Shown here: one piece after another, positions 13,133 through 57,690 of the stretch | How positions within the stretch are numbered: the first letter of the stretch is position 1 | Layout: every line of letters begins with the position of its first letter | Virus record (IMG/VR): IMGVR_UViG_3300045988_159421 | DNA from: a virus | Length of the DNA: 64,000 nt | Reading direction: 5' to 3' (one strand) | Translations under genes and position numbers: made by a program | The notes under the pieces: generated by a model | What the model saw: the letters and a program-made list of their open reading frames with translations, nothing else | Databases searched by the model: none | Told to the model about the DNA's origin: nothing

Positions 13133-13218
13133 TGGCGGAAAGGATAGGATTTGAACCTATGCACCTTACGGTCTAGAAGTTTAGCAAACTCCCCTCTTAA
13201 CCACTTGAGTACCTTTTC
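13133..13218 (-). tRNA. tRNA-Ser (anticodon GCU), long variable arm, encoded CCA
   Basis: Hand-folded cloverleaf. Anticodon stem GGAGT/ACTTC with loop TTGCTAA. T-arm ATAGG-TTCAAAT-CCTAT. One A:C mismatch in the acceptor stem. Confidence 0.75.
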
Positions 13219-13226
13219 TTATAAAA

Positions 13227-13303
13227 TGGTAGTAATAGTTGGACTTGAACCAACGACCTTGCGCTTATCAGACGCACGTTCTAACCATCTGAACTATATT
13301 ACT
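13227..13303 (-). tRNA. tRNA-Ile (anticodon GAU), encoded CCA
   Basis: Acceptor AGTAATA/TATTACT. Anticodon stem TGCGT/GCGCA with loop CTGATAA. T-arm GTTGG-TTCAAGT-CCAAC. 77 nt. Confidence 0.85.
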
Positions 13304-13312
13304 ATAATGTTT

Positions 13313-13390
13313 TGGCTGGCCTAGTGAGATTCGAACTCACAACAAACCATGGTCCGTAGCCATGTGCTCTATCCGTTGAGCTATAAGCCA
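13313..13390 (-). tRNA. tRNA-Arg (anticodon ACG), encoded CCA
   Basis: Acceptor TGGCTTA/TAGGCCA. Anticodon stem CATGG/CCATG with loop CTACGGA. T-arm GTGAG-TTCGAAT-CTCAC. Confidence 0.8.
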
Positions 13391-13399
13391 ATATTCTAT

Positions 13400-14262
13400 T
13401 TAGAAGGCTCGAGATTAAAGCCTTCTGTAGACACCTTTCGCAGCATTATTTATTCTCTGCTTATCCACGTACCTAATACGTATTGTCCATGACTGGTTGT
13501 ATTTTTATAGTGCCACAAAACCCTAACACGAGGCACTCTACTATAGTACTACTCAACACTTCGTATTCTGTCTGCCTTGCGAGCAACAAAGGTTTGCAAA
13601 ACCACCATGCAACTTCATGTTAAACGATTCACCCTTGGGAGGTGTCACGCACTAGATTATATCATGCAAGGATATTCTAGTATTAAGCCACTTTCATACT
13701 ATAAGGGAACAGACTTTTCCTTTTATTGTTTTGTTATCATAGACAATTTATCATCCAAAATTAATATTCTCTATGCCTGTATAAATCTGAATTAAATTTG
13801 ACAGACGTTGTGCTGTTCCTGAAGATTCGTTTCCTTTTGAGACACGAAATACTTCACAACATCAGTGTGTTTCATTGAATTCTTACTCCACGTTGTTAAT
13901 ACATACTCCAGCCCTTTCACTGTTTCACTATTAACAATGGTTAGTGCCCTTTGTTATCAGCATCGGACTATATAACCTCCTGATTATGTCTCGCTACATG
14001 ACCAATTTGGCGTGAGGTAAATTATTCAGTGCCACCTGAAAATCTTCGATATACGGTTCGCCTTTTCGAAAACTGTCCCTCTTGGGTTACGTAGTTATCT
14101 CCACTACTATCAATTCATGAAGACGTTGGACATTCAGTTCTGCTTAGATGGACTAGTTTAACTAGCGACATGTAGTCAGCATGCCTTTACACTGCTCACA
14201 CAATGCTATCCTAAAGATACTAAGCTACCTAAAATAGATTTAGATTTATTTTTTAAAACACA
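13400..14262 (-). ncRNA. candidate giant structured ncRNA (GOLLD/ROOL-class) between tRNA genes
   Basis: About 860 nt with no credible ORF, visibly more G+C-rich than surrounding DNA, and many local hairpins (for example AGAAGGCT/AGCCTTCT at 13402-13426). Flanked by co-oriented tRNAs and downstream of a box promoter. Strand is inferred from context. Confidence 0.5.
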
Positions 14263-14266
14263 TACA

Positions 14267-14340
14267 TGGCTGGGCGTAATAGATTCGAACTATTATTCCA
14301 GGAATCAAAATCCTGTGTCCTACCTTTGAACGAACACCCA
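14267..14340 (-). tRNA. tRNA-Gln (anticodon UUG), encoded CCA
   Basis: Acceptor TGGGTGT/ACGCCCA. Anticodon stem CAGGA/TCCTG with loop TTTTGAT. T-arm AATAG-TTCGAAT-CTATT. Confidence 0.8.
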
Positions 14341-14359
14341 ATATTTAACTGATAATTAT

Positions 14360-14403
14360 ATTCTAATCTCCCAACAATACTTTTTCAATCGGAACATATT
14401 CCT
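14360..14403 (-). promoter_or_regulatory. box-A promoter: 17-nt conserved box fused to -35 TTGAAA, 17-nt spacer, -10 TAGAAT
   Basis: Minus strand AGGAATATGTTCCGATTGAAA-N17-TAGAAT, about 20 nt upstream of tRNA-Gln. The box is identical to four other copies. Confidence 0.6.
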
Positions 14404-14405
14404 AA

Positions 14406-20044: not shown

Positions 20045-20045
20045 T

Positions 20046-20420: not shown

Positions 20421-20423
20421 AGA

Positions 20424-21254
20424 ATGAAAAAAGATATAACATTAAAATTGTTAAGCCCGCTTATGCATTATGGGGACGAAAGAATGGGTACTATGCAAGT
20501 AGCTAGATGTATGAAATTTGAATATAACGGAGAATTTATAGATATACCAGTTTATAGTGGAAATGCTTTTAGAGGAATTATGAGACGTATTGCAATGAGA
20601 GATTTCTTAGAAAAAATAGACATAGCAGAAGAAGGCATAAGTCCTAAATTATATTATTTACTTTTCACAGGTGGAACTCTTACAGGAGGCGGGCGCTTTT
20701 GTGAAATAGGTGAAAAAAGAGAAATGAGACGTTTATGTATTCCACTTAGTTTATTTGGAAGTGCAATTGGAGATCAAATTCCAGAAGGTAAAATGAAAGT
20801 CGGAATTTTCAAACCTATTTGCCAAGAAACAGCTGAGTATACAGGGAAACCTAGTAATGTATCTTTTTATGACATGTTAGATGAAATATTCTATACTAGA
20901 CACGATGATCTAAAATGCACTAATTATGATTTAATAAAAGATTCAGAAGATAAAAAGGATAAAAAAGATAATCCTGTTCAAATGAAATATGAAATGCAAG
21001 CATTAAGTGCTGGAACTAACTTAGTTTCTTCAATTGTAATAGAAAATTCTAATGACATAGAAGAATCTTGCTTAGAATCTATAATAGAAAAATTCAAAGA
21101 AATGCCTTTTATAGGTGGTAAAAGTGCTACAGGACATGGTGAAGTTGAAGTATTTTATGAAGGTAAAAAAGGTTCTGAGTTATATTATAATCATCTAGAA
21201 CAAAACAAAGATGAAATAAGGGAATGGCTTAGAAATTTAGAAGGGAAATTATAA
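20424..21254 (+). CDS. csf2: Csf2 (type IV Cas7) RAMP backbone protein
   Basis: N-terminal strand ITLKLLSPLMHYG, motif IPVYSGNAFRGIMRR, and C-terminal glycine-rich loop FIGGKSATGHGEVEV. These are classic RAMP/Cas7 signatures. Confidence 0.65.
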   Translation: MKKDITLKLLSPLMHYGDERMGTMQVARCMKFEYNGEFIDIPVYSGNAFRGIMRRIAMRDFLEKIDIAEEGISPKLYYLLFTGGTLTGGGRFCEIGEKREMRRLCIPLSLFGSAIGDQIPEGKMKVGIFKPICQETAEYTGKPSNVSFYDMLDEIFYTRHDDLKCTNYDLIKDSEDKKDKKDNPVQMKYEMQALSAGTNLVSSIVIENSNDIEESCLESIIEKFKEMPFIGGKSATGHGEVEVFYEGKKGSELYYNHLEQNKDEIREWLRNLEGKL

Positions 21255-21256
21255 AA

Positions 21257-22045
21257 ATGACACTTGATAATTTCTTAGAAATAGGTTCAATATGGTCTGC
21301 CTCTAATCAATTTCTCAGAAAATTACAAAACTCAAAAGAAATTGTTAAAGAACAACTATTAAAATATGATAAACCGTATATTTGTTTAAGTGGTGGTAAA
21401 GATAGTGTTGTAATGGCCTTTTTAATTGCTGATGTAATACAACATGATATAAAAGATTATAAAGGAGATATTATATTGTGGGGGCATGTTAGTGATGCAT
21501 CTTATCCAGGAACAATTGAAACTATGGAAAAAGTATCTAGTCAAACTGGAATAAAACTTGTTCTAGATACTTCTCCAGTATCTGCTTTTGAAGTTTTGGA
21601 CGATTCTGTTGTAAAGCAATTCGGTAAACAAGGTTATTTCTTTGATGCTATAGAAAATTGTATAAATACTTACGAAAGAAATTTAAGTTTTATAGGTGTA
21701 AGAGCATATGAAAGTAGAAGAAGGATGAGAGCAGTAAAAGCTCATGGTATGACTTTTACTTCTAATGTACCTACATTCTGTAATATATGCTATCCTCTTG
21801 CTTGGTATAAACTAGAGGACGTTGCAGCATTAACTTATATGTATAATACTCCTATTCACCCTGTTTACTCAAAAGTAGATACTAGATTAAAATATAGTTG
21901 CACAGATGAAGGCTGGATAAGACTAGGTTATTTAACTGCTAAAGATTTGTTAAATCAAGGTTCTGCAGTATTTATAAAAAGAAATTATCCTGAGCAGTTT
22001 GAAAAGTTAGCTCAACATTATCCTGAAATAAGGAACTATATTTAA
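21257..22045 (+). CDS. cysH: CysH-like PAPS reductase/PP-loop ATP pyrophosphatase family protein
   Basis: PP-loop motif CLSGGKDSVV near residue 44. 262 aa. Embedded between the cas7-like and cas5-like genes. Confidence 0.7.
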   Translation: MTLDNFLEIGSIWSASNQFLRKLQNSKEIVKEQLLKYDKPYICLSGGKDSVVMAFLIADVIQHDIKDYKGDIILWGHVSDASYPGTIETMEKVSSQTGIKLVLDTSPVSAFEVLDDSVVKQFGKQGYFFDAIENCINTYERNLSFIGVRAYESRRRMRAVKAHGMTFTSNVPTFCNICYPLAWYKLEDVAALTYMYNTPIHPVYSKVDTRLKYSCTDEGWIRLGYLTAKDLLNQGSAVFIKRNYPEQFEKLAQHYPEIRNYI

Positions 22046-22062
22046 AAGGGGGTTGAAAATAT

Positions 22063-22764
22063 ATGTTTAAAAACTTCAAAGTAATAGCACATTTAGGAAG
22101 CCCTCTTTGTGCTATAGATGATATCATATTAGATTCTGTTATAAGTGCTGCAATGTACAAAGATTTACTTAAAGATGACTATTATTTTGGTTCAAATAAG
22201 TACGGAACAAAAGAACAAATAGATAGTATGCTATCAACAATATTAGATAAGCAATATGGCATTTATTGTACAAGTTATGGTTTTGGAAATGACAGAGAAA
22301 CTATTTCTAGTTGGTCCAAAAGGTTTGATGTAAAGAATGATGATCTAATAAAATTTACTGGAAAAGCTAAACATAGAGTTGACTTAGGAGCTGGATACTT
22401 TAAAAATTATCATATACCTATAGTTTTAAAGTCAGTAAAGACTTTGACTTTCTATGTTAGAGGTGATATGGAAAGAATTAAATATTTATTAGAAAATTAT
22501 ATTTTTTACCTTGGCAAAAAACCTTCACAAGGTTACGGAGAAATTAGATATTGGGAATTTGAAGAAATTAAAGATAATATAAGTGTATTAAATAAAGAAA
22601 ATAAAAATATGAGAAATATTCCTTTTGATGAAATTAGTGATATACTCGAACAAAATGCTAGTACGAGTAAAAACAAATCAGAAGATTTTACATTTAATCT
22701 AAAAAAAATGCCAGTAATCCCACCTTATTGGAGACCAGATTGTAAAAAAGTTTGTGTGGTATAA
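22063..22764 (+). CDS. csf3: Csf3 (type IV Cas5) RAMP protein
   Basis: N-terminus VIAHLGSPLCAIDDIILDSVISAAM (the xPLxLDxxLxxA pattern of Csf3/Cas5) and glycine-rich loop LGKKPSQGYGEI. Confidence 0.6.
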   Translation: MFKNFKVIAHLGSPLCAIDDIILDSVISAAMYKDLLKDDYYFGSNKYGTKEQIDSMLSTILDKQYGIYCTSYGFGNDRETISSWSKRFDVKNDDLIKFTGKAKHRVDLGAGYFKNYHIPIVLKSVKTLTFYVRGDMERIKYLLENYIFYLGKKPSQGYGEIRYWEFEEIKDNISVLNKENKNMRNIPFDEISDILEQNASTSKNKSEDFTFNLKKMPVIPPYWRPDCKKVCVV

Positions 22765-27034: not shown

Positions 27035-28915
27035 CTAATCATATCCATGTTCTTTTTTAAATTCAATAAACCATTTTCTTAAAGCTAAGTATTTTTCTTC
27101 TCTAGTATCCACTTCTTCTTTTGTAGGTTTTCTACCACAACTATGCTTATTACCTTCGGGACAATATCCTAATTTTTCACAGTTAGGAACTAAATATGTT
27201 TTGTATCTCGGCTCTATTTCTACTACTTGTTTGACCATTTCTTTTACTATTGTTCTAATTGGCAACTCTGCTCGTGTGCAAAGTCGTATATTTGCTAGAT
27301 GCATTAAACATTCTAGGTTAACTGCTATATTACATTCTGTTGCTACTCCAATAGGTAATATTGTTCTAGCTATCTCATTAGCTTTTTCTCCTGTTATACC
27401 ACCATCTTCTAAGAAAGTTTGTATATAGTTATATTGGGCATTAACTATATCTTCTTGGTCTTTTATTGTCTTAACCATATATGGACTATCTAGTAACTCT
27501 GGAGCTATATATATACTTACCTTTCCATCTTTATTACAATATCTTAAGCTTTGTACATTAGTTACAAATCCTTGTGTATGTCTTACTATCTGATCTACGC
27601 AATTTCCACACCAAACTGCTTTCCCATTTCTTCTTACAAATATTATATGGTTAGGAACATTTACACAATAAACTTGGCCTTCGTAATGTTTAACCGTTTT
27701 ATGTTTTTTCAATGATACATGAGGGTATTTATTTCTAGTGTTGAAACTTACATTGATAACATATCCTACATAATTACATTTTACTGTTTTGTTGCATATT
27801 TGTATTTTCTCACCAACCAAATTTTCATTTCTAGTGTATATCATTGCAGACCATCCTGCTAAAAAGCATAATTGTTGCAATTGATTAGCCAATATTTCGG
27901 AACAAGTATAAAATTTGCCACATCCATTTTTGTCTAAATGCCCATCTCCTCTGAAATATTCATTTAAGAAAATCTGAGCATATTCTTTATTAAATTCATC
28001 ATATATATTTAATGGTATATATTTGTTAGATGCAGTCCCTAATTGTTTTAAAAATTTGCCTAATGTTAAACTATTAAATCTTATATCTCTATCTGTTACA
28101 GTTGGTGCAAATCCTAATTTTATTATTATGTCTTGTATATCTTCTTTTGTATGATTTTCTATATTTTTTTTACAATTTGTTTGTGATATTGAAATAACAT
28201 ATTTATTTTCTTTTTCGTTATAATATGTTGATCCATCAGATAAATACCATGCTAAAAATTTATAAAATGTTTTTCTATCTAATTCTAAATCTCCAGTATA
28301 CATATTACAATCTCCACCATTATTTGTTTTTTTCTTATATGTATAACCTTTAATTTTATATATATTCGGTAAATTATTTATACCTTTATATTCAAATTCC
28401 TTTGTAAGTTTTATTCTATTTACATTTATATCCTTTATAGGTGTTAAATAAGTTTTATCCTTGTCTTTTCTAACATCATATTTTTTATAATATATATTAT
28501 GGTTCTCAGTTATTGCAAGGTCGACATTTTCACTTTTAATAAAAAACATATTCCCATTATAGTTTTCCACTATTTTTTCTTTTATTTTATGAAATTCCAC
28601 CTTTTTAGTTGTATCATTTAAAGTTGCTACTATTTCATCTTCTTTTATGTCTTTGATAAACTTCCAGCCTTCTAAGGTTAATATTTCAGTTTCTTCATCG
28701 TAACAACTTCTAGGTATATTTCTAAGAGTAAACCAAGCATATAAATGTCTACTTCCACTTAGATGTCCACTCTTAAGACAGCTTTCTCCAACTTTCTCTG
28801 CATATTTTGGATCAGTGTTATAACATACTGTAGCCATAAGGCCATGCTTTTTAACAAACTCTTTTACTTCTTCTGGGTTTTGTAGTTCTATTTTAAAATC
28901 ATTTAGTGTAAACAT
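27035..28915 (-). CDS. thyX: FAD-dependent thymidylate synthase ThyX interrupted by an intein
   Basis: The exteins (70 + 188 aa) rejoin as ...[30 protein letters not shown], recreating the ThyX RHR...S..RY signature region. 626 aa in total. Confidence 0.8.
27602..28705 (-). mobile_element. LAGLIDADG-type intein within thyX (368 aa)
   Basis: Starts with Cys71 ([10 protein letters not shown]) and ends ...VWCGN, followed by a +1 Cys. Two LAGLIDADG-like blocks: [10 protein letters not shown] and NEYFRGDGH. Confidence 0.7.
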
Positions 28916-29677: not shown

Positions 29678-30985
29678 CTATAATATAAGTTTAAAATCAT
29701 CTAAATCAACTTCAAAGCCTTCTAGTTCAATACTTCTAGGTTTATCAATTAAATCAGGTGTCATAAAGAATGAAGTCATTTTCATATCCTTAGTAAATTT
29801 AGGTCTTTTAGTAGCATTTGTACCATATAATACTTTAGCTCTTAGTACTTCATAACTATAACCTTTGCCAGCCTTTTCAACACTTTTAATAACGTTATTT
29901 ATAGACTCTGTATAAGCGTTTGTATAAGGCTGTAAGAAATAATTGAATATTTCATGCTTATTATTGTTGTAAGTTCTTTGAAGGTCTTTAAAAGCTTTAA
30001 AATCATCTGGTATTCTACATTCCCATTCATAGTATCTTTGAAACGCTTCATATCTATCTTCTGATGTATAAATATCTCTTATTGTTTCTTTTAACCAATA
30101 TGCTACACCAAGCTCTGGGAACTCCTCAAACCAAGTATCTCTAAGTATTATGTCTTTTTCTTTTAGGTCTTCTTTATTTTTTAATAATACCCATCTGTCA
30201 TTTGTTAAAATTCGTTTCCTATCATTAGGCAAATTAGATTTAACTTGTTTTCTAACAGTATCTAAAGCTCTTTGAGCATATTGGATAACGTGAAATTTAT
30301 CAACTACTACAGTAGCACTAGGTATTAATTCTCTACAAGCATATCTATAACCACTCCACATATCTATTGTAACTACTTCTATATCCTTATAACCTTCCAT
30401 GCTCTGAATTGTATTTTTAACAGTTTTTTTAAGATTGTCTTCGGTTATTTCAAGTAATTTATTATTTTCTGTGTCTGTGAATACACCTCTCATTTTCTTA
30501 TTTAAATGAGCCTCATCTATTCCTAATACTCTAGGTGCTTTTATAATTCTATCTGCATCTAATCTAGCTATTTCTTCTTTAAAATATTTTCTTACTGAAG
30601 TATGAGATAGTCCACAATCATATCCTACTTCTAAAAATGGCTTCCTAAGGCTTTGTTGTTGAATATATTGCTTTAGTCTAAGAGTAACTTTATCATTTCT
30701 CTCAATACTGTAGAAAGGCTGATAAAAGGTTTTACCACAACAAGGACATTTATATCTGATATGTTTTAAAACTAATATAACTGGTTTTCCATGAATAGGT
30801 ATATCTTGAATTTCTCTTTCCTTACTACTATGTATCGTAAAATTCCTTGTATCTCCCATAACAGGTGCTTCATCCCATAAACATTGGGTACATACTATTG
30901 GTCTTTCTTTTGCTACGATTGTAAACTTATAATAATATTCATTTTCTTCTTTTTTAATTACTTCAAATTCTGGTAAATTTAACAT
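29678..30985 (-). CDS. ISL3-family transposase
   Basis: 435 aa. N-terminal Zn-finger (CTQC...CPCCGK), central DDE region (GIDEAH...VVTIDMW...DKFHV). Paralogous to ORF 48825..50138. Confidence 0.75.
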   Translation of the reverse strand: MLNLPEFEVIKKEENEYYYKFTIVAKERPIVCTQCLWDEAPVMGDTRNFTIHSSKEREIQDIPIHGKPVILVLKHIRYKCPCCGKTFYQPFYSIERNDKVTLRLKQYIQQQSLRKPFLEVGYDCGLSHTSVRKYFKEEIARLDADRIIKAPRVLGIDEAHLNKKMRGVFTDTENNKLLEITEDNLKKTVKNTIQSMEGYKDIEVVTIDMWSGYRYACRELIPSATVVVDKFHVIQYAQRALDTVRKQVKSNLPNDRKRILTNDRWVLLKNKEDLKEKDIILRDTWFEEFPELGVAYWLKETIRDIYTSEDRYEAFQRYYEWECRIPDDFKAFKDLQRTYNNNKHEIFNYFLQPYTNAYTESINNVIKSVEKAGKGYSYEVLRAKVLYGTNATKRPKFTKDMKMTSFFMTPDLIDKPRSIELEGFEVDLDDFKLIL

Positions 30986-34323: not shown

Positions 34324-35328
34324 TTATTTTTCCTCATAAAAAGTTATATTTTTTAATACTATGTCGAATGTTCCATTTTCGTTTTTTCTAAAGCTGTATT
34401 TCATTGGATCTTCAAAATCTGTTAACTTTCCTTTTATACTAAAACCAGTATCAGTTTTTATATTTCTGTTTTTAAGTTTCTTTTCAATCCATTTCTTGTC
34501 TATTTCAAAGTTTTCAGTTAAACCTCTATCCTCCATATGTTCATTAAAGCTTTCTTGTAATTCTTTATCTTGAATACTATTTTCAGCAAATTTTTTAACA
34601 TCTAGAGTTTCTTTTTCTTTTAAAGTATAATTAAGCATACTTCTTATATCTTCGGCCATTTTCAAATCTTCTGATATTGCATTTGTTATCCAGTTATCTG
34701 CAGTTTTCTTAAATACTTTTGTTTTATATTTATCATCTTCTATCTTTTCAGCATTTAGAAACTCTGTTAAAAATTTAGTTTCTAGTTGGTCCTTTTCTGC
34801 ATCTTTGTCTAATAATCTAAAGTGATAATAATCATTCACTCCATTAGGTCCAACTATTACACATTGCTTTTGTCGGCCTGTTTCAGGTATACCTATCTCA
34901 TTTGATGCGATTTGTATGTTAAATTTATCTTCTACATATTCTATTGAATGAGTATAAAGTTTTTTATAATCAAGTTTTATAATTGCTACATTTTTTTCAT
35001 CTTTAACACTGTATAAACATATTGCTAAATCACAAGAATCTATTTCATTATTTCGTTGCATTACTTCAAATAAATATGCTGCTATCTCTTTTGAGTTTTG
35101 TAAGAATGTCTTTTCATCGTAAATTATTTGTTCACAGCAATTTTTTACGATATTATCGTTGTAATCTTTGAATTTTGCTTTTCTTAGATCATCATCTTTT
35201 AAAACTCTAGTTATTATCTTTTGGAAAAACTTATCTACTTCTAAACTATTTTTACATTCATAGTCATTTAATATTGGAGCATCACTATTTGTATCTAGTA
35301 CATGTATTATTGATTTATGTATTATCAT
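34324..35328 (-). CDS. nucleoid-associated protein (NdpA/YejK-like)
   Basis: 334 aa. The N-terminus IIHKSIIHVLD resembles the family N-terminus. Recognised from memory only. Confidence 0.4.
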   Translation of the reverse strand: MIIHKSIIHVLDTNSDAPILNDYECKNSLEVDKFFQKIITRVLKDDDLRKAKFKDYNDNIVKNCCEQIIYDEKTFLQNSKEIAAYLFEVMQRNNEIDSCDLAICLYSVKDEKNVAIIKLDYKKLYTHSIEYVEDKFNIQIASNEIGIPETGRQKQCVIVGPNGVNDYYHFRLLDKDAEKDQLETKFLTEFLNAEKIEDDKYKTKVFKKTADNWITNAISEDLKMAEDIRSMLNYTLKEKETLDVKKFAENSIQDKELQESFNEHMEDRGLTENFEIDKKWIEKKLKNRNIKTDTGFSIKGKLTDFEDPMKYSFRKNENGTFDIVLKNITFYEEK

Positions 35329-35798
35329 TTTTCTTCCCCTTTCAATGCATCTTGGCCAAATAAGGCTACTGCCATTTTTTCGATTATTTTCTTTTTAATG
35401 TAATGTACATTTGCTATTGTACAATCAAACTCCTCGGCAATATCTTTAAGAGTTTTTTCTTCAAAGTAAATATATTTAAATATCTTTCTTTGTTTTTCAC
35501 TCATGCTTTTAAACACTTCTGATATCACCTTTCTGTTTTTTTTATGTTCAAATATATCTCCCTCAACTTTTGCAATTAAATCATCTATTCTTATAACTTC
35601 ATTTTCTATAGGTCTATTAATTGCATGAGTTGGAGAAGATTTAACCATATCATTACAAACTGCCTTTATCGCCCCCCTATCTCCGTCCTTTATCTTTTTT
35701 ATATGTTCTTCCTTTTGCTGTATATAGATAGTTATAAATTTCATGTTTTTTAAAATCATTTCTGTTTCTTCCATAACATCTTTATTCAAACATTCCAC
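35325..35798 (-). CDS. sigma-70-family (region 4) transcription factor
   Basis: C-terminus SEKQRKIFKYIYFEEKTLKDIAEEFDCTIANVHYIKKKIIEKM is a region-4 HTH. Confidence 0.55.
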   Translation of the reverse strand: MECLNKDVMEETEMILKNMKFITIYIQQKEEHIKKIKDGDRGAIKAVCNDMVKSSPTHAINRPIENEVIRIDDLIAKVEGDIFEHKKNRKVISEVFKSMSEKQRKIFKYIYFEEKTLKDIAEEFDCTIANVHYIKKKIIEKMAVALFGQDALKGEEK

Positions 35799-44633: not shown

Positions 44634-45317
44634 TTAAACCCCCTTAGTTATTCTCATATTCGGTACATTTTTAAACTCGATTATATTTTCTCTACACATT
44701 TCTATGATTCTACTAGTTATAGCAGCATCATAATTCATCAATTCATCTAGTGATTTTTCTGTACTTACTATAATCGGTTTTTCTGTCATGTAACGATAAT
44801 TTATTATTTCATAGATATACTTTCTATCAGCTTCGCTTGTTTGACCTTTGAGTAAATCATCAACGAATAGCACAGTGCAATTCTTATACTGGTCTATTTC
44901 TTTGTTGTAATTAATTGGATCCATACAACATTGTTTTAGTTTCATAATTAAGCTAACATATTCAGCATATCTACATCCTACATTTTGATTTACGAGTTGC
45001 ATCATCATTGCAATTCCTAAATGGGTTTTTCCCGTTCCTGGTTTTCCAGTTAATAAGAAACTACCCTTTTCCTCTTTAAACTTCTTACAGTAGCTCATGG
45101 CTCGTAATTTTGCCTGTTTCTGATGCTCTGTATCTGTTTTGAAGTTTAAAAAAGTTTTCTTTTTAAAAGAATCCGTTAGGCCACATCTTTCTAACTTTTC
45201 TTTTATGTGTCTTTTCTTGATACATTCACAAGGAACGGCTTGAGTATAGCCTTCTTTATCTTCTTGTAAAGTGTACCCTAAATCTCTACACTTCTCACAT
45301 TGATATTCTATAGCCAT
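44634..45317 (-). CDS. DnaC/IstB-like helicase loader ATPase
   Basis: Walker A GKPGTGKTHL, Walker B VLFVDDL, N-terminal Zn-ribbon CEKC...CEC. Confidence 0.75.
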   Translation of the reverse strand: MAIEYQCEKCRDLGYTLQEDKEGYTQAVPCECIKKRHIKEKLERCGLTDSFKKKTFLNFKTDTEHQKQAKLRAMSYCKKFKEEKGSFLLTGKPGTGKTHLGIAMMMQLVNQNVGCRYAEYVSLIMKLKQCCMDPINYNKEIDQYKNCTVLFVDDLLKGQTSEADRKYIYEIINYRYMTEKPIIVSTEKSLDELMNYDAAITSRIIEMCRENIIEFKNVPNMRITKGV

Positions 45318-46255
45318 TTTTCTATGCTGCCGCCTCCCATTTCATCTAATTCTTTTTGTAATTCGTCTATTTCATCTAAGTCATCTTGACTTACTGGTTT
45401 CATTTTCTCGGGATCTATATAACCTTGATATTTTTGTAAGTCCTCTAATATGTTTGAATTGTTATTGTCTTGATGTTTATTTGAGTTGTAGTTACTGAAG
45501 TTGTCTTTTAGTGGAAAAACTCCTTGCCAACAATTTTCAATCGAGTTTTCCAGTATTTTTATTTTGATATCATCTGTTGTTGCTAACTTATCTAGTTTAT
45601 TTAGTATTCCTTTTAAGGCTCTTTCTGTAACAGGCTTTTTAATGCTCTTTCGCATTTTCATAAAATCTATTATTGTTTCCTGTAAGAAAGAGTTAGAAGT
45701 ATACTCATTTATAAGAACATCTAAATCAGTTCTTTTTTTCTTTTTTTCTTTTTTATTAAGACTGTTATTATTAACACTATTAATATTTAAACTGTTATTA
45801 TTAAGACTGTTAATATTAGTGTATTCGTTTTCGAGATATTCATTTTCGATATCTTTATTTTCGTGATATTCATTTTCGATATCTTTATTTTCGTGATATT
45901 CATTTTCGATATCTCTAAAATTAATACATCGGTCTCTTTCATCCATTATGATTTCATATATATTTTTTGCTTTTAAATTACCTGATTTTATTCTTTCTAC
46001 TTTTATGTACCCGGATTCTTTTAATGTTTTTAAGTGTTTAGTAAATCTATTGATTGAGATTCCTAATTCTTCACACATTAAATCTCTACTTGGATAACAT
46101 GTTTTTTTATCTCCAGCGAAGGCTATTAAATATGCATAAATTGCTTTTGCCTCAATTGAAAGATTCTTATCTCTCATAACTATCTTAGGTATTATTCCAT
46201 ACCCATCACGTAAAATACTATTTTTGTTGTATTTTACCTCCATTGAATCTGTCAT
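45308..46255 (-). CDS. replisome organiser (wHTH N-terminus plus DnaD-like C-terminus) with internal repeats
   Basis: N-terminal GIIPKIVMRDKNLSIEAKAIYAYLIAFAG...GISINRFTKHLKTLKESGYI. C-terminal DnaD-like LQETIIDFMKMRKSIKKPVTERALKGILNKL. Tandem ENEYHENKDI repeats. Confidence 0.6.
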   Translation of the reverse strand: MTDSMEVKYNKNSILRDGYGIIPKIVMRDKNLSIEAKAIYAYLIAFAGDKKTCYPSRDLMCEELGISINRFTKHLKTLKESGYIKVERIKSGNLKAKNIYEIIMDERDRCINFRDIENEYHENKDIENEYHENKDIENEYLENEYTNINSLNNNSLNINSVNNNSLNKKEKKKKRTDLDVLINEYTSNSFLQETIIDFMKMRKSIKKPVTERALKGILNKLDKLATTDDIKIKILENSIENCWQGVFPLKDNFSNYNSNKHQDNNNSNILEDLQKYQGYIDPEKMKPVSQDDLDEIDELQKELDEMGGGSIEKWL

Positions 46256-46682: not shown

Positions 46683-47069
46683 ATGAATGGTGTAAATGAA
46701 AAAGATATTGGTAAAAGAATTGAATTCATAAGAAAGAAAGAAAAGCTTTCAAGACGAGAGTTTGGAAAAATAGTAAATAAAAGCGAAGATGCTGTATATA
46801 ATATTGAGAAAGCTAGAGCTAAAATAAGTGATGATATTATTTATAGCATATGTAATATTTTCCACATTAATAAAAATTGGCTGCTTAATGGAGAGGATGG
46901 TATGTATGAAACTAATTCCAAACATATTAGACTTGCAAATATAGTTGGAAATTTAGAAAAAGAAGAAAATCTATTTGAATTAACAGAAATGCTTCTAGAT
47001 CTAAATGATAGACAAATTGAGGTAATTAAAGATTTAATAGATGTGTTTAAAGAATCAGAAAAAAAATAG
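46683..47069 (+). CDS. CI-like XRE-family repressor
   Basis: ATG 46683 after GGAGG. MNGVNEKDIGKRIEFIRKKEKLSRREFGKIVNKSEDAVYNIEKA HTH. The track ORF start at 46554 is probably too far upstream. Confidence 0.6.
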   Translation: MNGVNEKDIGKRIEFIRKKEKLSRREFGKIVNKSEDAVYNIEKARAKISDDIIYSICNIFHINKNWLLNGEDGMYETNSKHIRLANIVGNLEKEENLFELTEMLLDLNDRQIEVIKDLIDVFKESEKK

Positions 47070-47359: not shown

Positions 47360-47560
47360 CTATTTGTATTCAGAATCAAATAAGTCAGTTATTCTACAAC
47401 CTAAAGCTATCGCTATTTTTTCTAGCTTTACTAGATCCAGTACTGTATCGTTATTCTCCAGTCTAAAGAGAGTACTTTTACTTAGTTTAGTTTTGTATGC
47501 TAACTTTCTAAGACTATGATTTTTCTCGTTTCTTACCTTTGAAATATTGTTAATTATCAT
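47360..47560 (-). CDS. XRE-family HTH regulator (66 aa)
   Basis: NHSLRKLAYKTKLSKSTLFRLENN HTH. Confidence 0.55.
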   Translation of the reverse strand: MIINNISKVRNEKNHSLRKLAYKTKLSKSTLFRLENNDTVLDLVKLEKIAIALGCRITDLFDSEYK

Positions 47561-47637
47561 AAAATTTATTCTAAAATAACTGCTTTTTCTCGTAAATGTA
47601 AAATATTTGGTTAATATTCCACAAAAACACTAGAAAA

Positions 47638-47718
47638 GAAAAAAAATCCACCTTCCGCAAGATGGATTTTCTTCTAAATAATCATAGGTCATATATAAGA
47701 TACAGAAATACTTTTAAC
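47638..47718 (-). ncRNA. candidate sRNA 1 (box-B promoter to intrinsic terminator, about 80 nt)
   Basis: Box plus TTTTCA-N17-TATAAT at 47725-47768. Terminator hairpin ATCCATCTT-GCGG-AAGGTGGAT plus T8 at 47638-47667. Confidence 0.55.
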
Positions 47719-47724
47719 AATTTA

Positions 47725-47768
47725 ATTATAACATTCCAATACTTATTTGAAAATCGGAACATATTCCT
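47725..47768 (-). promoter_or_regulatory. box-B promoter
   Basis: AGGAATATGTTCCGATTTTCA-N17-TATAAT on the minus strand. Confidence 0.6.
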
Positions 47769-47777
47769 AACTTTTAC

Positions 47778-47906
47778 AAAAAAACAACCGCTCTTGATGA
47801 GGGTTAAGAGCGGTTAGGGAGTATTGTTTCATACCATAAATTCTAATGATAAACAATATACTAGAAATATTTTAGGAATAAAAAAATATAATCTTAGATA
47901 ACTATA
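47778..47906 (-). ncRNA. candidate sRNA 2 (box-C promoter to terminator, about 130 nt)
   Basis: Terminator AACCGCTCTT-N10-AAGAGCGGTT plus GTTTTTTT at 47778-47815. Contains the CU-rich ACTCCC. Confidence 0.55.
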
Positions 47907-47912
47907 TTATTA

Positions 47913-47956
47913 ATGATACTACTGTTTTTTCAAAACTTCAATCGGAACATATTCCT
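47913..47956 (-). promoter_or_regulatory. box-C promoter
   Basis: AGGAATATGTTCCGATTGAAG-N17-TATCAT on the minus strand. Confidence 0.6.
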
Positions 47957-47965
47957 AATTAACAA

Positions 47966-48058
47966 TAAAAAATAACTACCTCACAGATGGAAAGGTAGTT
48001 ATTCTTTAAGAAAGGAGTACTTATATTAGTAATATAGCTAAAACTTTAAGTCTTATAC
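47966..48058 (-). ncRNA. candidate sRNA 3 (box-D promoter to terminator, about 90 nt)
   Basis: Terminator AATAACTACCT...AGGTAGTTATT plus TTTTT at 47966-48002. Contains the anti-SD-like ACTCCTTTCTT. Confidence 0.55.
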
Positions 48059-48064
48059 AATATA

Positions 48065-48108
48065 AGATTAACACCTTTCATTTCCAATTACAATCGGAAC
48101 ATATTCCT
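48065..48108 (-). promoter_or_regulatory. box-D promoter
   Basis: AGGAATATGTTCCGATTGTAA-N17-TAATCT on the minus strand. Confidence 0.6.
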
Positions 48109-48268
48109 ATATATTTTTAGGGTATGAAACTATAACTGTAGATTAATAAGAAAACGTACTTTGACAAGTGAATATAAAATTTATTACTTAAAATAACTTT
48201 AACTGTGGAAATTATAACTTTAATTGTGGTATAATAAGGTATATTTATTAAAGGAGGAAGATTCTTTT

Positions 48269-48823
48269 ATGGATAAAAAAAGTATAGAATTTTTAAAAGA
48301 ATTACAAAGTGAAATGCTAACACAAAATGAAATACTAACACAAGGTACTAGTAATCTTAGATTTTGGGTGGTAACAGACGAAAGAAAAATATATAGTGAA
48401 GATGATTATGACGGTCAAGAAATAATATTTGAGGGGGACGTAATAGGAGAAAACCTAAAAGATTTATGTGATTTTTTAGTTGATTATGATGATAAAATTA
48501 GAATATCATACAATAAAGAAAATGACTATGTAGAATTTTTAGACAAAGATGGGCATAAAACTACATTATTTGAAGTAGAAGGACTTGTAGATTATTTAAA
48601 TAATGAATTAGATTATGATATACATTTAAATAATTATAAAATAGAAGAAATTATAGTACCAAATACAATGTTTTTAACTTTGAGAGAATGCAGAGAACAT
48701 ATTAAATCAAACGAACATCATTATAACAAACCATCTGCTTATGGGATGTCAGCAGAGAAAAGCTCTCAAGCAAAACAATTATATAATATACTATTAAAAA
48801 CTAATTGGGATGAAGTAAAATAA
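48269..48823 (+). CDS. hypothetical acidic protein translationally coupled to a transposase gene
   Basis: ATG 48269 after AAGGAGGAAG. 184 aa. Stop is 1 nt before the transposase ATG. Preceded by TGGTATAAT and a direct repeat ATAACTTTAAYTGTGG x2. Confidence 0.5.
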   Translation: MDKKSIEFLKELQSEMLTQNEILTQGTSNLRFWVVTDERKIYSEDDYDGQEIIFEGDVIGENLKDLCDFLVDYDDKIRISYNKENDYVEFLDKDGHKTTLFEVEGLVDYLNNELDYDIHLNNYKIEEIIVPNTMFLTLRECREHIKSNEHHYNKPSAYGMSAEKSSQAKQLYNILLKTNWDEVK

Positions 48824-48824
48824 T

Positions 48825-50138
48825 ATGAATATACTAAATTTACCAGAATTTGAAGTTTTAGACACAATACAAGATGACCATGATATGACGGTAATAGTAA
48901 GACCAGTTAAAGCGCCTGTGGCTTGCCCAGAGTGTGGTGGAGTTGAATATTATAAGCATGGTAAATCCAAACGATTTGTAAGGGATTTAAATAGCTTTGG
49001 CAAACGAGTAGGGATTGAAATACATACACACAGATATAAATGCAGATACTGCGGTACTACATTTAGTCAACATTACAAAAGTATTGACGATAGAGATAAA
49101 ATCACTATTCGTTTAAGAGAGCAAATAGAAAAAGAATCCCTTAAAAAGCCATTCGCCAATATAGCAGAAGAATATAGTGTTTCTCCTACTACAGTAAAGA
49201 GAATATTTAATGCTTACATAGAAAGGTTAGAAAAGGATATGACATTCCTCACTCCAGTTATATTAGGTATAGACGAAGCACATCTAAATAAAAGCATGAG
49301 AGCCGTTTATACCGATATAATTGGACGTAAGGTATTGGATATCCAGCCAAGCCGTAAGAAGTCCGATGTAAAGGCTTTTCTGAGTAAATTGCCTAACAAG
49401 GAGAATATAGAAGTAGTAACCATAGACATGTGGAGATATTACAAAGAGGCAGTATATGAGGAGTTGCCAAAAGCTCAGGTAATAGTTGATAGATTCCATG
49501 TAATACAATTAGTTAACAATGCTTTAGAAGGTGAGAGAAAGTCATTTAAAGGCTCTTTAGACAGAAAGCAAAGGTCTAAGTTGTTAAAAGATAGATTCTT
49601 GCTACTGAGGAATAAAGAGGATTTAAATGCTAGACAGATTTGGGATATGCAACTAATGTTTTTAGACTTTCCACAGTTAAAGTTAGCCTATGAGTTAAAG
49701 GAACAATTTAGGGATATCTATAAACACGATAACCGAGAAGATGCTCTAAGGGCTTATGAGGACTGGAAGAAGGCAGTACCAAAGGATATGAAATACTATC
49801 AAGATGTTATTAAAACAGTTGATAACTGGCAGTATGAGATATTTAACTACTTTACTTGTAGAATCACAAATGCTTATACAGAGAGTTTAAACAACTTGAT
49901 TAAGAACATCGAGAAAGCTGGTAGAGGTTACTCTTTTGAGGTACTTAGAGCAAAGGTGCTATTTGGTACAAGTGCTACTAGAAAACCTAAATACACAAGA
50001 GCAAATACAAGTAACAAAACATATACATTTACTACGGCATTTAGTTGGAATGATTTCGTAGGAAGTACAAAATTAACAGAAGGATTTGGAGTAGATATTC
50101 CACAACTACTAGAGGTATTAGAGAGTGATAAGTTTTAA
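48825..50138 (+). CDS. ISL3-family transposase (second, divergent copy)
   Basis: 437 aa. LNLPEFEV N-terminus, CPECGG...CRYCGT zinc finger, GIDEAH...VVTIDMW...DRFHV DDE region. Confidence 0.75.
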   Translation: MNILNLPEFEVLDTIQDDHDMTVIVRPVKAPVACPECGGVEYYKHGKSKRFVRDLNSFGKRVGIEIHTHRYKCRYCGTTFSQHYKSIDDRDKITIRLREQIEKESLKKPFANIAEEYSVSPTTVKRIFNAYIERLEKDMTFLTPVILGIDEAHLNKSMRAVYTDIIGRKVLDIQPSRKKSDVKAFLSKLPNKENIEVVTIDMWRYYKEAVYEELPKAQVIVDRFHVIQLVNNALEGERKSFKGSLDRKQRSKLLKDRFLLLRNKEDLNARQIWDMQLMFLDFPQLKLAYELKEQFRDIYKHDNREDALRAYEDWKKAVPKDMKYYQDVIKTVDNWQYEIFNYFTCRITNAYTESLNNLIKNIEKAGRGYSFEVLRAKVLFGTSATRKPKYTRANTSNKTYTFTTAFSWNDFVGSTKLTEGFGVDIPQLLEVLESDKF

Positions 50139-50149
50139 TTCACTCTCTT

Positions 50150-50506
50150 TTATTTTCCACACTTAAAGTTGTATACCCTATTTTTATAAGTAAATTTTAC
50201 AAAAGTTCCGTTTTCAGTTTTAGCCTTAACTCTGGCAACTTCTGTTGTTTCATCTATTTCTAAACTTTTAATCGCTTGAATAACCATATTTGTTTTACAG
50301 TTTTTAGTTTTAAATTCAATAATATCATCTGTATATTTTACAGTTGCATTTGACATGCTAAAATCCACTCCAGAAATAGTTAATACATATACACTAACTT
50401 TTTCTCCTTCAAATGGCTCTAGAAATTTTTTAATTTCCCATTGTTCAACTAATTTTTTAATGTTATTATTTTTCATTTTTCTTACCCCTTCTCTAATTAA
50501 TATCAT
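50150..50506 (-). CDS. hypothetical protein
   Basis: 118-aa ORF. Confidence 0.4.
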   Translation of the reverse strand: MILIREGVRKMKNNNIKKLVEQWEIKKFLEPFEGEKVSVYVLTISGVDFSMSNATVKYTDDIIEFKTKNCKTNMVIQAIKSLEIDETTEVARVKAKTENGTFVKFTYKNRVYNFKCGK

Positions 50507-52186: not shown

Positions 52187-53314
52187 TTATTTTGGAATAT
52201 CTAAATTATTATTTAAAGCATAATTTATTACCCTTTCTTGAGAAAATTCACTTAAAGAATTTAAACCATTTTCAATTGCTGTTAAATATAATTTTCTTTC
52301 TATGTTACTACTGTTATTATTGTAATTATTAGATTTAGATTCTATATGTTCATTTTTAACTCTTCTAAGTTTGTTTTCTAATTCTTCTGGACTATAATTT
52401 TTATAATGTTCATTAAATGTATCATGATACTTTGTTAAAGGTTTTTTATTTTCTTTTCCAGTATCTTTTGTAACAGTTTTTCCTTTGTCTTTTTTATTTT
52501 GTTTTTTATTTTTAAATTCTGCTTGATCCTTTTGATAATCATCTAAAGTTACTATATTTTTTTTATCTAGATTTTCAAAAACTTGTTTCATATAAGCATA
52601 TTTTTTATTAACACTTTCTTCACTTGCTGCTATAAAAACTTGTTCAAATACATCTAAATCAAATTTATTTGCATATTCTAAAAGTAGTTTTTTAGTATGT
52701 GGCATAAATCTTTTTTCAATTTTAAAAGACTTATATAATTCTATAAGTTTTGTTTCTTTTTCAACACCAACAACAACTTCATTTTCTTTATTAATATAGT
52801 TGTTATTATTATTTTCTTTATTAGCGTATCGAAAATCGGTATCGCAGAAATTGGTATCCCTATTTTCGGTATCCCAGTTTTTAGGATTACGGTGAGATGT
52901 AGTGTTTTCAACGCTTTCATCGTTATTAGTTTTTTCGCTTACGTTCATATTTACGTTATCGTTTACGTTCGTAATATCTACGTTTTGTTTTTCGCTAAAA
53001 ACTTCGTATAAATAACCATTTGTAAGGTTACCGTTTTTTAGAGGTGTTCTTTTTATATAACCAACCTCTATAAGCTTATTTAAGCCATTAGATACTCTAG
53101 TTTTACTTACTCCTAATTGAGTAGCTAAGCCTTGTATACTTATTACGTGATTTGGATTAGATATATATTGTAAAATCTTTGCAAATACAAAAAATGCATT
53201 TGGGCCTAATAAATTCATATCGTTCATAATTTCATTTGGAATAACTGTAAAACCTTTGGCTAGTTCTGCGCTTGCTATAAATTTGGATTCATTGCTACTT
53301 TCGAACTTAGACAT
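52187..53314 (-). CDS. plasmid-type replication initiator (wHTH N-terminus, internal iterons, DnaD-like C-terminus)
   Basis: The likely start is ATG 53314 after AGGAGGG. FTVIPNEIMNDMNLLGPNAFFVFAKIL...GVSKTRVSNGLNKLIEVGYIK. Central DNA repeats GGTATC x3 and TTACGTT x4. C-terminal DnaD-like segment. Confidence 0.6.
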   Translation of the reverse strand: MSKFESSNESKFIASAELAKGFTVIPNEIMNDMNLLGPNAFFVFAKILQYISNPNHVISIQGLATQLGVSKTRVSNGLNKLIEVGYIKRTPLKNGNLTNGYLYEVFSEKQNVDITNVNDNVNMNVSEKTNNDESVENTTSHRNPKNWDTENRDTNFCDTDFRYANKENNNNNYINKENEVVVGVEKETKLIELYKSFKIEKRFMPHTKKLLLEYANKFDLDVFEQVFIAASEESVNKKYAYMKQVFENLDKKNIVTLDDYQKDQAEFKNKKQNKKDKGKTVTKDTGKENKKPLTKYHDTFNEHYKNYSPEELENKLRRVKNEHIESKSNNYNNNSSNIERKLYLTAIENGLNSLSEFSQERVINYALNNNLDIPK

Positions 53315-53507
53315 ATCTATTTCCCTCCTATGTTGAATTTTATCGATTTGTAGCAATTTTTATCTATCTTAAAGAATTGAAAATATAATAAATGCATGAT
53401 ATAATATAAATACAATATTGATATATGTGATACAAGATAGACCTACTTTGCTACAGTTTCTGTACAATTTGATTGTTGGCGCGATCAAAAAGTAGGTTTT
53501 TTTATGT

Positions 53508-53663: not shown

Positions 53664-53968
53664 ATAAAAAACCTCCTATCTGTAAAGTGTGTCACTTCTC
53701 TTTTTAAAAAGTGTATCACTTTAAAAAACAAAAATCAATATATAATTCTAAAATAATAATATTGGTTAAGATATTAACATTATTTTAACTATAAACAACA
53801 TTTTAATAAAATATTAACTAAAATATATATTAATATATTAACAAAATTTAAACAATAATTAAGATGTTATTAATATTTAAACTATTTTATTGACTTTTGT
53901 ATTTTTTTATCATATACTTTAATTAAGATATTATTAAAATATCAACTAACATTAGGAGGGATTTATAT

Positions 53969-55340: not shown

Positions 55341-55384
55341 TTATCGGTCGCTTATCGGTCGCTTATCGGTCGCTTATCGGTCGC
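55341..55384. repeat. four perfect tandem 11-bp repeats TTATCGGTCGC
   Basis: Read directly. The last unit forms the inverted repeat TATCGG/CCGATA with 55387-55392. Confidence 0.95.
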
Positions 55385-56891: not shown

Positions 56892-57161
56892 TTAAGTATG
56901 TTTTACTCTATCTCTAAGTTCTCCTTTTTTACCATCGTTAAATTGTCGAACCTCACTTAAATAACCTGTGATTCTTCTGATTCTTTCAAATGAAACAGGA
57001 ACAAGTTTATATTCTAAATCTACATATCCTTTATCATCTATTGTTATATTTAGATATTCAATTTCTCGATTTGGATATTTTTTATGAATATGTTTTATGT
57101 AAGCTTCGATTTCTCTTTGTTCAGCATGAACTCCTTCTGGAGTTTTTATATTTATTTTCAT
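56892..57161 (-). CDS. stand-alone NrdD C-terminal glycyl-radical-domain-like mini-protein
   Basis: The C-terminus RIRRITGYLSEVRQFNDGKKGELRDRVKH matches the class III RNR glycyl radical tail (R..GYL...FN.GK..E...RVKH). Only 89 aa. Confidence 0.55.
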   Translation of the reverse strand: MKINIKTPEGVHAEQREIEAYIKHIHKKYPNREIEYLNITIDDKGYVDLEYKLVPVSFERIRRITGYLSEVRQFNDGKKGELRDRVKHT

Positions 57162-57181: not shown

Positions 57182-57448
57182 AAAATAAAAAGGATTACAA
57201 ATTAGTAACCCCCTTAGAAAAAATGGTAAGTGCCTCTAAATACTATATACACATATAACTTTTAAAATTAAAATTCGATTAAAATATAAATGTTTTTTTA
57301 TTAAGTCCACATTGGAATCACCCTCTTTCATAGCCAATAAGCAAAAGAAGGACCCACTCTAAAAGTAAGTCCTTTCCGGAAAAGGTTATTAAACCGATTC
57401 CTTTGCTCGTTGGGGTTTCAAATGAGAAATTATTTTATCTACAATTAT
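57182..57448 (-). promoter_or_regulatory. structured 5' leader with a terminal weak terminator ahead of the lysis cassette (candidate riboswitch/attenuator)
   Basis: A long-range helix AGCAAAGGAA/TTCTTTTGCT encloses the hairpins CCTTT-TCCGG-AAAGG and GGAC...GTCC. Then ATTGG...CCAAT. Then GGTTAC-TAATTT-GTAATC plus CTTTTTATTTT just before the RBS. Confidence 0.4.
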
Positions 57449-57492
57449 AGTGTAAATTCCCAATAACAAATTTGCAATCGGAACATATTCCT
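57449..57492 (-). promoter_or_regulatory. box-E promoter
   Basis: AGGAATATGTTCCGATTGCAA-N17-TACACT on the minus strand. Confidence 0.5.
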
Positions 57493-57690
57493 AATAATTA
57501 TAATTTAAGTGTTAAAACTTTGTTAATTAGTAATATTTATATATATATTTTGCATATGCTATGATATGCGAAGCGTTTATGAAGTAGCGACAGCGACCGT
57601 AATAAATGCAAAGCGGTTATATCAAGGTTATAGCAATTTGGATAGACTATATTCATTTTTATCTAGTATATAAAATTATATAAATTTATA

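Follow-up and report, generated by a model that had tools for sequence, protein, structure and literature searches.

We focus here on a cluster of putative small RNA (sRNA) genes in IMG/VR virus record IMGVR_UViG_3300045988_159421, a stretch of 64,000 nucleotides (nt) which is referred to in its entirety as the window and which probably comes from a phage-plasmid of human-gut Peptostreptococcaceae (Intestinibacter). From 48109 to 47639 the minus strand of this 64-kb sequence consists of three units arranged head to tail in the order U3-U2-U1 (units 3, 2 and 1), each of which starts with an exact copy of an 18-bp box, TAGGAATATGTTCCGATT, and ends with a strong hairpin and a U-tract (Table 1). 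The original prediction had described three promoter-to-terminator units on this strand, and the boxes, the -35/-10 pairs and the hairpins with their T-tracts bear it out. The RNA sizes it gave, about 80, 130 and 90 nt, agree with the ~79, ~130 and ~87-93 nt now predicted for sRNA1, sRNA2 and sRNA3. The bodies of the units are as dissimilar as claimed: besides the box and an A-rich tail, they have no repeat of at least 14 nt in common. The claim that the region holds no gene for a protein stands as well. Its open reading frames (ORFs) measure only 25-51 amino acids (aa), no convincing Shine-Dalgarno site was found for them by inspection, and each of the six frames of unit 3 meets a stop codon in at least one of its subtypes, leaving no conserved reading frame.

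A sigma-70-like -35/-10 pair follows the box in all three units on the minus strand. In unit 3 there is a second such pairing, TTGGAA-17-TATATT, at 48087-48059, with TATATT at 48064-48059; in unit 1 the extended -10 reads TGTTATAAT (47733-47725). The terminators have hairpins of 11-16 pairs with U-tracts and folding z-scores of -2.5 to -3.9, and the 3-kb region contains four terminator-like sites against 0.7 expected. The stem of the sRNA2 terminator is G+C-rich, with 11 bp formed by 47816-47806 and 47795-47785. No tandem repeats occur inside the units, and no Rfam family was found for 47500-48300 at either gathering or permissive thresholds (best E-value 0.73, at less than half the gathering score).

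Table 1. Coordinates of the three-unit cluster and of further features of the window
Feature	Position	Strand	Details
Unit 3 box	48092..48109	-	Final TT opens -35 hexamer TTGTAA (48093-48088)
Unit 3 -10 region	48059..48070	-	TAATCT (48070-48065) in the family-wide register, box+21
Predicted sRNA3, ~87-93 nt	47966..48058	-	A/U 5' hairpin, single-stranded AAGUACUCCUUUCUUAAAG, terminator hairpin 48008-47966 with U-tract
Unit 2 box	47940..47957	-	-35 TTGAAG (47941-47936), 17 nt, -10 TATCAT (47918-47913)
Predicted sRNA2, ~130 nt	47776..47906	-	Single-stranded AAUACUCCCUAA, then terminator, then GUUUUUUUG
Unit 1 box	47752..47769	-	-35 TTTTCA (47753-47748), 17 nt, TATAAT with TG; promoter spans 47753-47725
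Predicted sRNA1, ~79 nt	47639..47718	-	A/U-rich 5' part, 16-pair terminator (47674-47639) with U8
Box module before tRNA/GOLLD block	13133..14405	-	Box 14405-14388
Box module before lysis-cassette leader 'RNA-E'	57300..57494	-	Box 57494-57477
Csf1-Cas11-Csf2-CysH-like-Csf3	19310-22764	+	PADLOC; PAPS-reductase-like gene inside; type IV-B layout
ISL3-family insertion sequence	48120..50178	+	Transposase Pfam E = 2e-62; inverted ends; target duplication
XRE/Cro-type helix-turn-helix gene, 66 aa	47360..47560 (with promoter 47360..47596)	-	Kept in every architecture

Five copies of the box, ATCGGAACATATTCCTA, occur in the window, all of them exact and in a single orientation (14388, 47753, 47941, 48093 and 57477). 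Degenerate copies with up to three mismatches were not found there, the chance expectation being 0.21. A scan of viral, genome and metagenome collections gave ~170 loci with the box, ~150 of them from one family of 36-78-kb contigs which stem nearly all from human-gut samples and include a single named organism, Intestinibacter bartlettii. The loci outside this family lie in unrelated GC-rich DNA and were set aside as chance hits. When 42 distinct variants of the sequence downstream of the box were aligned, 34 showed TTnnnA (mostly TTGnnA), exactly 17 nt, and then TAnAAT or a close variant; the remaining eight are chance hits or have the register off by one base. The -35 hexamers begin with the last TT of the box and include TTGCAA, TTGAAA, TTGAAG, TTGTCA and TTTTCA, and the 34 promoter-like variants span about ten types of transcription unit at ~150 related loci. 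The invariant 16-bp part of the box, TAGGAATATGTTCCGA, occupies positions of about -51 to -36, and its core, GGAATATGTTCC, is a near-palindrome centered at about -43.5, a location typical of class II activator sites and of operators in contact with the -35 element. What had been called a '17-nt box promoter' does start each unit, but the alignment indicates that the 18-bp element is not itself the promoter; it is an upstream near-palindromic site fused to a normal host-type (sigma-A-like) -35.

By analogy of position, the near-palindrome is most likely an activator- or operator-like site. As the box is invariant while the spacers and transcribed parts differ, a sequence-specific protein is indicated, and one phage-encoded regulator most likely binds the site. 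Our guess at this protein falls on two candidates. One is a 157-aa member of the sigma-70-region-4/ECF (extracytoplasmic function) superfamily with weak similarity to the RinA family (35325-35798, minus strand), and the other is the 66-aa XRE protein. The gene for the former adjoins that of a 37-kDa nucleoid-associated-protein homologue (34324-35328) and is a candidate late regulator. Two other identities for the box were tried and rejected. By inspection, its GAAT and GTTC are 2 nt apart rather than the 4 nt of a Gram-positive LexA (Cheo) box, and for an ECF-type -35/-10 pair there is no conserved -10-like CGT at the right distance.

The same features could suit a DNA element whose transcripts are incidental, that is, an array of box operators that titrates or loops the regulator, or a site acting as a centromere or in the manner of iterons. 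Not one base of the box varies although promoter spacers and bodies differ, a near-palindrome suits a helix-turn-helix dimer, and partition and replication genes of the phage-plasmid are nearby. Yet all copies are in register with the -35/-10 elements and each cluster copy has a terminator behind it. The copies are moreover dispersed (at 14.4, 47.8-48.1 and 57.5 kb) before RNA genes, with spacings of 152 and 188 bp within the cluster that are not iteron-like, and separate short tandem repeats are present beside the ParM-like gene and inside a Rep gene. A function of the DNA itself is, in our view, decidedly unlikely.

More can be learned from the two other places in the window where the module is found. 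The box at 14405-14388 lies 48 nt upstream of tRNA-Gln, which is followed by GOLLD RNA, tRNA-Arg, tRNA-Ile, tRNA-Ser and then the large terminase gene. The GOLLD RNA is recognized by Rfam at 13406-13864 with 187 bits (threshold 150) and probably extends to ~14266. The small and large terminase genes flank this block, and no obvious terminator separates it from the large terminase and portal genes. That the module precedes tRNAs and a GOLLD RNA confirmed by Rfam, all in the same orientation, identifies it as the mark of a genuine promoter reading in this direction. The second place is upstream of RNA-E (57300-57445), a conserved and structured-looking leader of ~150 nt (minimum free energy -39 kcal/mol, z = -2.4) with an internal hairpin and a U-run. 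RNA-E is almost invariant in ~45 relatives, has no match in Rfam and may be an attenuator or an antitermination target. Behind it come a gene resembling the C-terminus of NrdD, two small ORFs that are holin-like by inspection of their sequence, and an amidase endolysin. The first of these genes (56892-57161, minus strand) encodes an 89-aa protein which matches only the C-terminal glycyl-radical end of the anaerobic ribonucleotide reductase NrdD and could serve as a 'spare part'.

In relatives, the box promoter also directly precedes protein genes, with no terminator in between. One case comes from a contig of the cultured strain I. bartlettii N19, the sole tie of the contig family to a named host, in which, at 5669-7281 of L088, a single box promoter stands before a gene for a 509-aa protein. 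By inspection this protein has protein-kinase sequence motifs, besides an N-terminal domain to which no family could be assigned, and its gene looks like a defense-type moron. From this distribution, the module would seem to be a general promoter for self-contained units of this phage family, which in the window are RNA genes.

Modules of this kind are also reminiscent of a late switch. Q-type factors, such as that of lambda, load at a DNA element beside a promoter, and the box adjoins its promoter much as the lambda Q loading site does. RNA polymerase would then start at every box promoter and ordinarily halt at the hairpin, and a phage factor loaded at the box would allow read-through as at lambda PR'-tR', with the short RNAs as by-products. 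Two of the module's locations would suit such a switch, namely that before the lysis-cassette leader with its internal hairpin and U-run and that before the tRNA/GOLLD block running into the large terminase and portal genes. At the cluster, however, three tandem modules before a self-promoted, leaderless gene for a 66-aa regulator would make little sense, and the body of unit 3 keeps specific single-stranded motifs across subtypes. The protein genes that relatives place behind the box promoter without a terminator do not fit either, nor was a Q-like protein found among the 79 ORFs scanned, which are a part of those in the window. Antitermination is unlikely as an account of the cluster.

Comparison with relatives indicates which parts of the cluster have been retained. 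In 22 viral contigs and numerous metagenome contigs it invariably has the same two neighbors, a 118-aa gene and the XRE gene, and it takes one of three architectures. The first is that of the window, U3-U2-U1 with spacings of 152 and 179-189 bp (152 and 188 bp in the window); the second is U3-U2-U1 with a long U2 (461-489 bp); the third is a two-unit arrangement, U3'-U1', with a spacing of 149-151 bp, in which U2 is missing and an unrelated RNA takes the place of U1. Unit 3 alone is conserved across lineages; units 1 and 2 are lineage-specific and have been replaced or rearranged. Unit 3 comes in three subtypes, all of which keep the promoter, UUUUAGCUAUAUU and UACUCCU. Its terminator of 14 bp has two pairs that are changed on both sides (UA/UG/CG and AU/GU/GC), compensatory changes by which the pairing is retained. 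Between lineages its body is 70% identical, compared with 56% (15/27) at four-fold sites of the flanking genes and 67% overall for the upstream gene flanking the cluster. The terminators of U1 and U1' have a common outer stem, AAAUCCA...UGGAUUUU, with inner stems that have changed and yet still pair. In one relative the U1 promoter is joined to a different body, which makes the promoter module a recombination joint. A search of the viral contigs for box-less homologues of unit 3 with a degenerate body pattern returned 19 new hits, all of them chance matches to unrelated sequence.

The long unit 2 (461-489 nt; L004 3075-3536, and also L014, L103, L116 and L128) has the promoter and terminator of the short form, and the strand opposite to it contains an open frame of 47-69 codons (MYDIEKDNQLVELSEFARSAKEIDALKGFLTTPYDRLHLKYDKLPII) that has no obvious ribosome-binding site. 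BLASTP gave no alignment of this frame with the CI-like protein, and the idea that it is a relic of the CI-like repressor was dropped.

Toxin-antitoxin RNAs or a plasmid copy-number antisense RNA had been put forward among the possible roles, and there are grounds for considering them. PMC7699646 describes type I systems with small RNAs as common on Clostridioides difficile prophages, and the element replicates as a plasmid. The anatomy nevertheless lends these roles no support and largely rules them out. A type I system would call for a small toxin gene, and neither strand has a conserved or hydrophobic small ORF (conservation was judged on unit 3, and the ORFs of the window are short). The repeats of a type III antitoxin are missing from the RNAs, and the gene downstream encodes a 66-aa helix-turn-helix protein rather than a toxin. 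For copy-number control, there is no rep gene or rep leader on the opposite strand, and in the ancestral arrangement there is nothing opposite at all. The ctRNA and other families of Rfam are matched at chance-level scores only. Of all the readings weighed here, we give this one the least credence.

The window also encodes a type IV-B Csf cassette and has no clustered regularly interspaced short palindromic repeat (CRISPR) array, and cargo for the array-less complex had been named among the possible roles of the cluster. Considered more widely, its RNAs could be anti-defense or guide-like, namely Csf cargo, CRISPR-repeat mimics or decoy antitoxins. The cassette is confirmed as complete, on the same element, and each RNA consists of a variable 5' part and a 3' hairpin. 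The published type IV-B complex binds heterogeneous RNA of ~55-60 nt, and the natural RNA partner of such complexes is unknown (PMC7937560). The cargo idea would for this reason be of consequence if it held. The RNAs bound in that complex, however, are shorter than those predicted here. The occurrence of the two loci also speaks against cargo: csf2 is found in only three of the 22 cluster-bearing viral contigs, nine more distant viral contigs that have csf2 lack the box, and two metagenome contigs with an identical three-unit cluster have no csf2 within 12.5 kb of the syntenic site. Nor do the RNAs have a handle-like sequence in common, and no protospacer-like match to the units was found in phage and plasmid collections. 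The cluster's sole repeat, the 18-bp box, is situated ahead of the predicted start sites and recurs at 150-489 bp in relatives. This differs from the 24-40-bp repeats with spacers of similar length that make up a CRISPR array. Judging from these occurrences, the cluster appears to be maintained independently of Csf and the cassette to be an accessory island in a minority of the family, an accessory status which argues against a dedicated partnership between the two. Guide-like or anti-defense RNAs are thus very unlikely. Marginally less probable again is a more specific version, in which the sRNAs are unprocessed natural guides or decoys of Csf or else act with or inside a GOLLD RNA cage, the latter thought arising because the sRNAs share one switch with GOLLD. 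If a Csf partnership were true, the complex would be provided with defined guides or decoys rather than with random RNA.

A mode of action is suggested by the CU-rich stretches to which the original prediction had drawn attention, ACUCCC and ACUCCUUUCUU. They are present, as described for sRNA2 and sRNA3, in segments that are predicted to be single-stranded and lie immediately 5' of the terminators. In sRNA3, in sRNA2 and in the sRNA1' of relatives, (A)UACUCC(U/C) is in a predicted single-stranded linker directly before the terminator, and unit 3 keeps a single-stranded CUCCU motif across its subtypes. In sRNA3 the motif is longer, CUCCUUUCU, or CUCCUUUCUAA in one subtype, which we take to be the 3' tail of Firmicutes 16S rRNA. 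By analogy with Gram-positive sRNAs of the same C/U-rich type, anti-Shine-Dalgarno translational repression is plausible and is the best-supported mechanism. A different origin of the CU-rich stretches, as the Shine-Dalgarno sites of mini-ORFs on the plus strand, was rejected: the frame is open in unit 3 of the window and broken in the other subtypes.

We therefore favor the view, with a probability of roughly 0.6, that the cluster comprises three independent, moron-like sRNA genes whose products are probably anti-Shine-Dalgarno regulators and which answer to a common regulator through the box. Each gene would start from a host-type, sigma-A-like promoter (TTGnnA-17-TAnAAT) and stop at a strong intrinsic terminator. 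A phage-encoded regulator would bind the 16-bp near-palindrome fused to the -35 and, the module being the same, would switch the three sRNAs jointly with the tRNA/GOLLD operon and the lysis-cassette leader. The exposed (A)UACUCC(U/C) would then pair with Shine-Dalgarno regions and block the initiation of translation on host or phage mRNAs. Genes for sRNAs are a known kind of phage feature and a fairly ordinary one, even though these have no relative in Rfam.

Several observations weigh against this interpretation. The protein that would bind the box is a guess. The short motif CTCCTTTCT alone is insufficiently rare to be significant in 64 kb: the sRNA3 9-mer occurs twice in the window, and 24 of 100 shuffles also reach two occurrences. 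Its second copy is complementary to the site at which ribosomes would bind the N-terminal terminase ORF (Shine-Dalgarno sequence AGAAAGGAG, 12901-12893), a candidate target. No specific sRNA target was found in the window by blastn-short, by a search for GGAGTA near start codons or by pattern search. When RNA duplex energies were computed for 84 translation start regions and compared with shuffles, units 1 and 2 showed nothing beyond the shuffles and unit 3 a generic anti-Shine-Dalgarno signal only. The excess conservation of unit 3 is modest and comes from just 27 four-fold sites. Sequence diversity is low, and covariation is confined to the terminators, which any transcription unit would keep. 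Finally, units 1 and 2 are restricted to one sub-lineage and unit 2 has forms of 179-489 nt, from which it follows that these two could be dispensable.

The surroundings of the cluster include an element that the original prediction had described as an operon. This plus-strand 'operon' at 48269 is an ISL3-family insertion sequence, made up of a passenger ORF (48269-48823) and the transposase gene (48825-50138), with terminal inverted repeats that begin GGGTAT and an 8-bp duplication, TATTTTTA. The element lies on the upstream side of unit 3, 11 bp from its box; the insertion has truncated the 118-aa gene at its 3' end and parted the cluster from this ancestral upstream gene (50506-50150). In most relatives it is absent and 50179 joins 48119 directly. 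It is found elsewhere in other genomes, once directly after RNA-E, and a second ISL3 transposase gene is present in the window at 29678-30985 (minus strand). A BLAST search of the region against phage and plasmid collections matched only the promoter part of the insertion sequence (48167-48244), in phiCD211-like C. difficile phage-plasmids; the similarity is confined to the insertion sequence. The body of unit 2 holds at 47822-47840 a sequence, GGTATGAAACAATA, that resembles the terminal inverted repeat at 48116-48134 (19 nt, 89%), and the long unit 2 of relatives has a similar one, GGTATGAGAAT. This may be an older insertion scar or chance, and a rough estimate places it within chance.

With the passenger ORF assigned to the insertion sequence, the supposed position of the cluster beside a divergent immunity operon falls away. 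On its other side, the XRE gene is served by a separate promoter, TTTACG (47596-47591) and TAGAAT (47573-47568). With the ATG 7 nt behind the -10, the mRNA is expected to be leaderless. A hairpin of its own follows the gene, which is convergent with a CI-like gene at 46683-47069. The gene would appear to be a separate unit and not to form a switch with the cluster.

The window further contains the genes expected of a phage-plasmid, namely a small terminase, a split large terminase, a portal, the lysis cassette, a partition protein and two Rep/DnaD-like initiators (45308-46255 and 52187-53356). The partition protein is assigned to a PHROG family, and the label ParM-like is our own. Inside the Rep/O-like gene at 45308-46255, tandem repeats of 15 and 30 nt (45753-45914; up to 98% matches, score 167) are reminiscent of an iteron-type origin lying within the gene, as it does in lambda O. 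Four perfect 11-nt repeats (TTATCGGTCGC) are found at 55341-55384 between the endolysin gene and the partition operon, and 4.3 copies of a 12-nt repeat at 53803-53851, just upstream of the ParM-like gene; both are possible centromere sites. In the large terminase gene (9991-12885, minus strand), an HNH homing-endonuclease ORF (11297-12103) separates the part for the N-terminus (12205-12885) from that for the C-terminus (9991-11091), each of which is an ORF of its own. A ThyX-type thymidylate synthase with a LAGLIDADG domain is encoded at 27035-28915 (minus strand). Together with GIY-YIG and more HNH genes scattered over the window, this makes the genome rich in homing elements.

The sRNAs of phages from Gram-positive gut anaerobes are almost unstudied, and this locus offers three candidates with clean predicted ends. 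Most useful among the new details is the common 18-bp promoter module, which ties the sRNAs, four tRNAs, the GOLLD RNA and the lysis cassette into one putative regulon. Research on GOLLD, whose function is still unknown, thereby gains a defined promoter, a candidate regulator and putative co-regulated RNAs.

The cluster can be set beside several known systems. The immunity RNAs of phage-plasmids (P1 c4, P4 CI RNA and N15 CB RNA) are likewise small RNAs near the regulatory genes of a phage maintained as a plasmid. They derive by processing from the transcripts that they control or are antisense to these, whereas the cluster has no complementary partner nearby, the supposed divergent operon being an insertion sequence. 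The 6S RNA of lambda PR'-tR' with Q antitermination combines a short terminated transcript with an adjacent protein-binding DNA element, and the box copies at 57477 and 14388 similarly stand ahead of lysis and morphogenesis genes. The three cluster units, in contrast, are not ahead of late genes, the 79 scanned ORFs include no Q homologue, and in relatives the promoter drives genes without a terminator. Comparable in presumed mechanism are the C/U-rich anti-Shine-Dalgarno sRNAs of Firmicutes, RsaE/RoxS and RNAIII with its UCCC motifs. As in these, a single-stranded C/U-rich motif (UACUCCC, UACUCCUUUCU) complementary to GGAG-type sites adjoins a Rho-independent terminator; unlike in these, the motif is in a linker rather than in hairpin loops, and no homology was found. 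The sRNA3 motif presumably also copies nine bases of the 16S 3' tail, which sets it apart from RsaE/RoxS.

The nearest parallel is provided by the prophage sRNAs of enterobacteria that are regarded as phage 'morons', such as DicF, IpeX and the Pas sRNAs. Like them, the three units are autonomous from promoter to terminator, lie between phage genes, are non-coding and vary between related phages, and their presumed action, too, is to base-pair with mRNAs of the host or the phage. They differ in belonging to a phage of a Gram-positive gut anaerobe and in having no sequence or Rfam relationship to known RNAs. Their arrangement is different as well: three unrelated RNAs follow one another in tandem, all with an invariant 18-bp module that is found again before the tRNA/GOLLD operon and the lysis leader.

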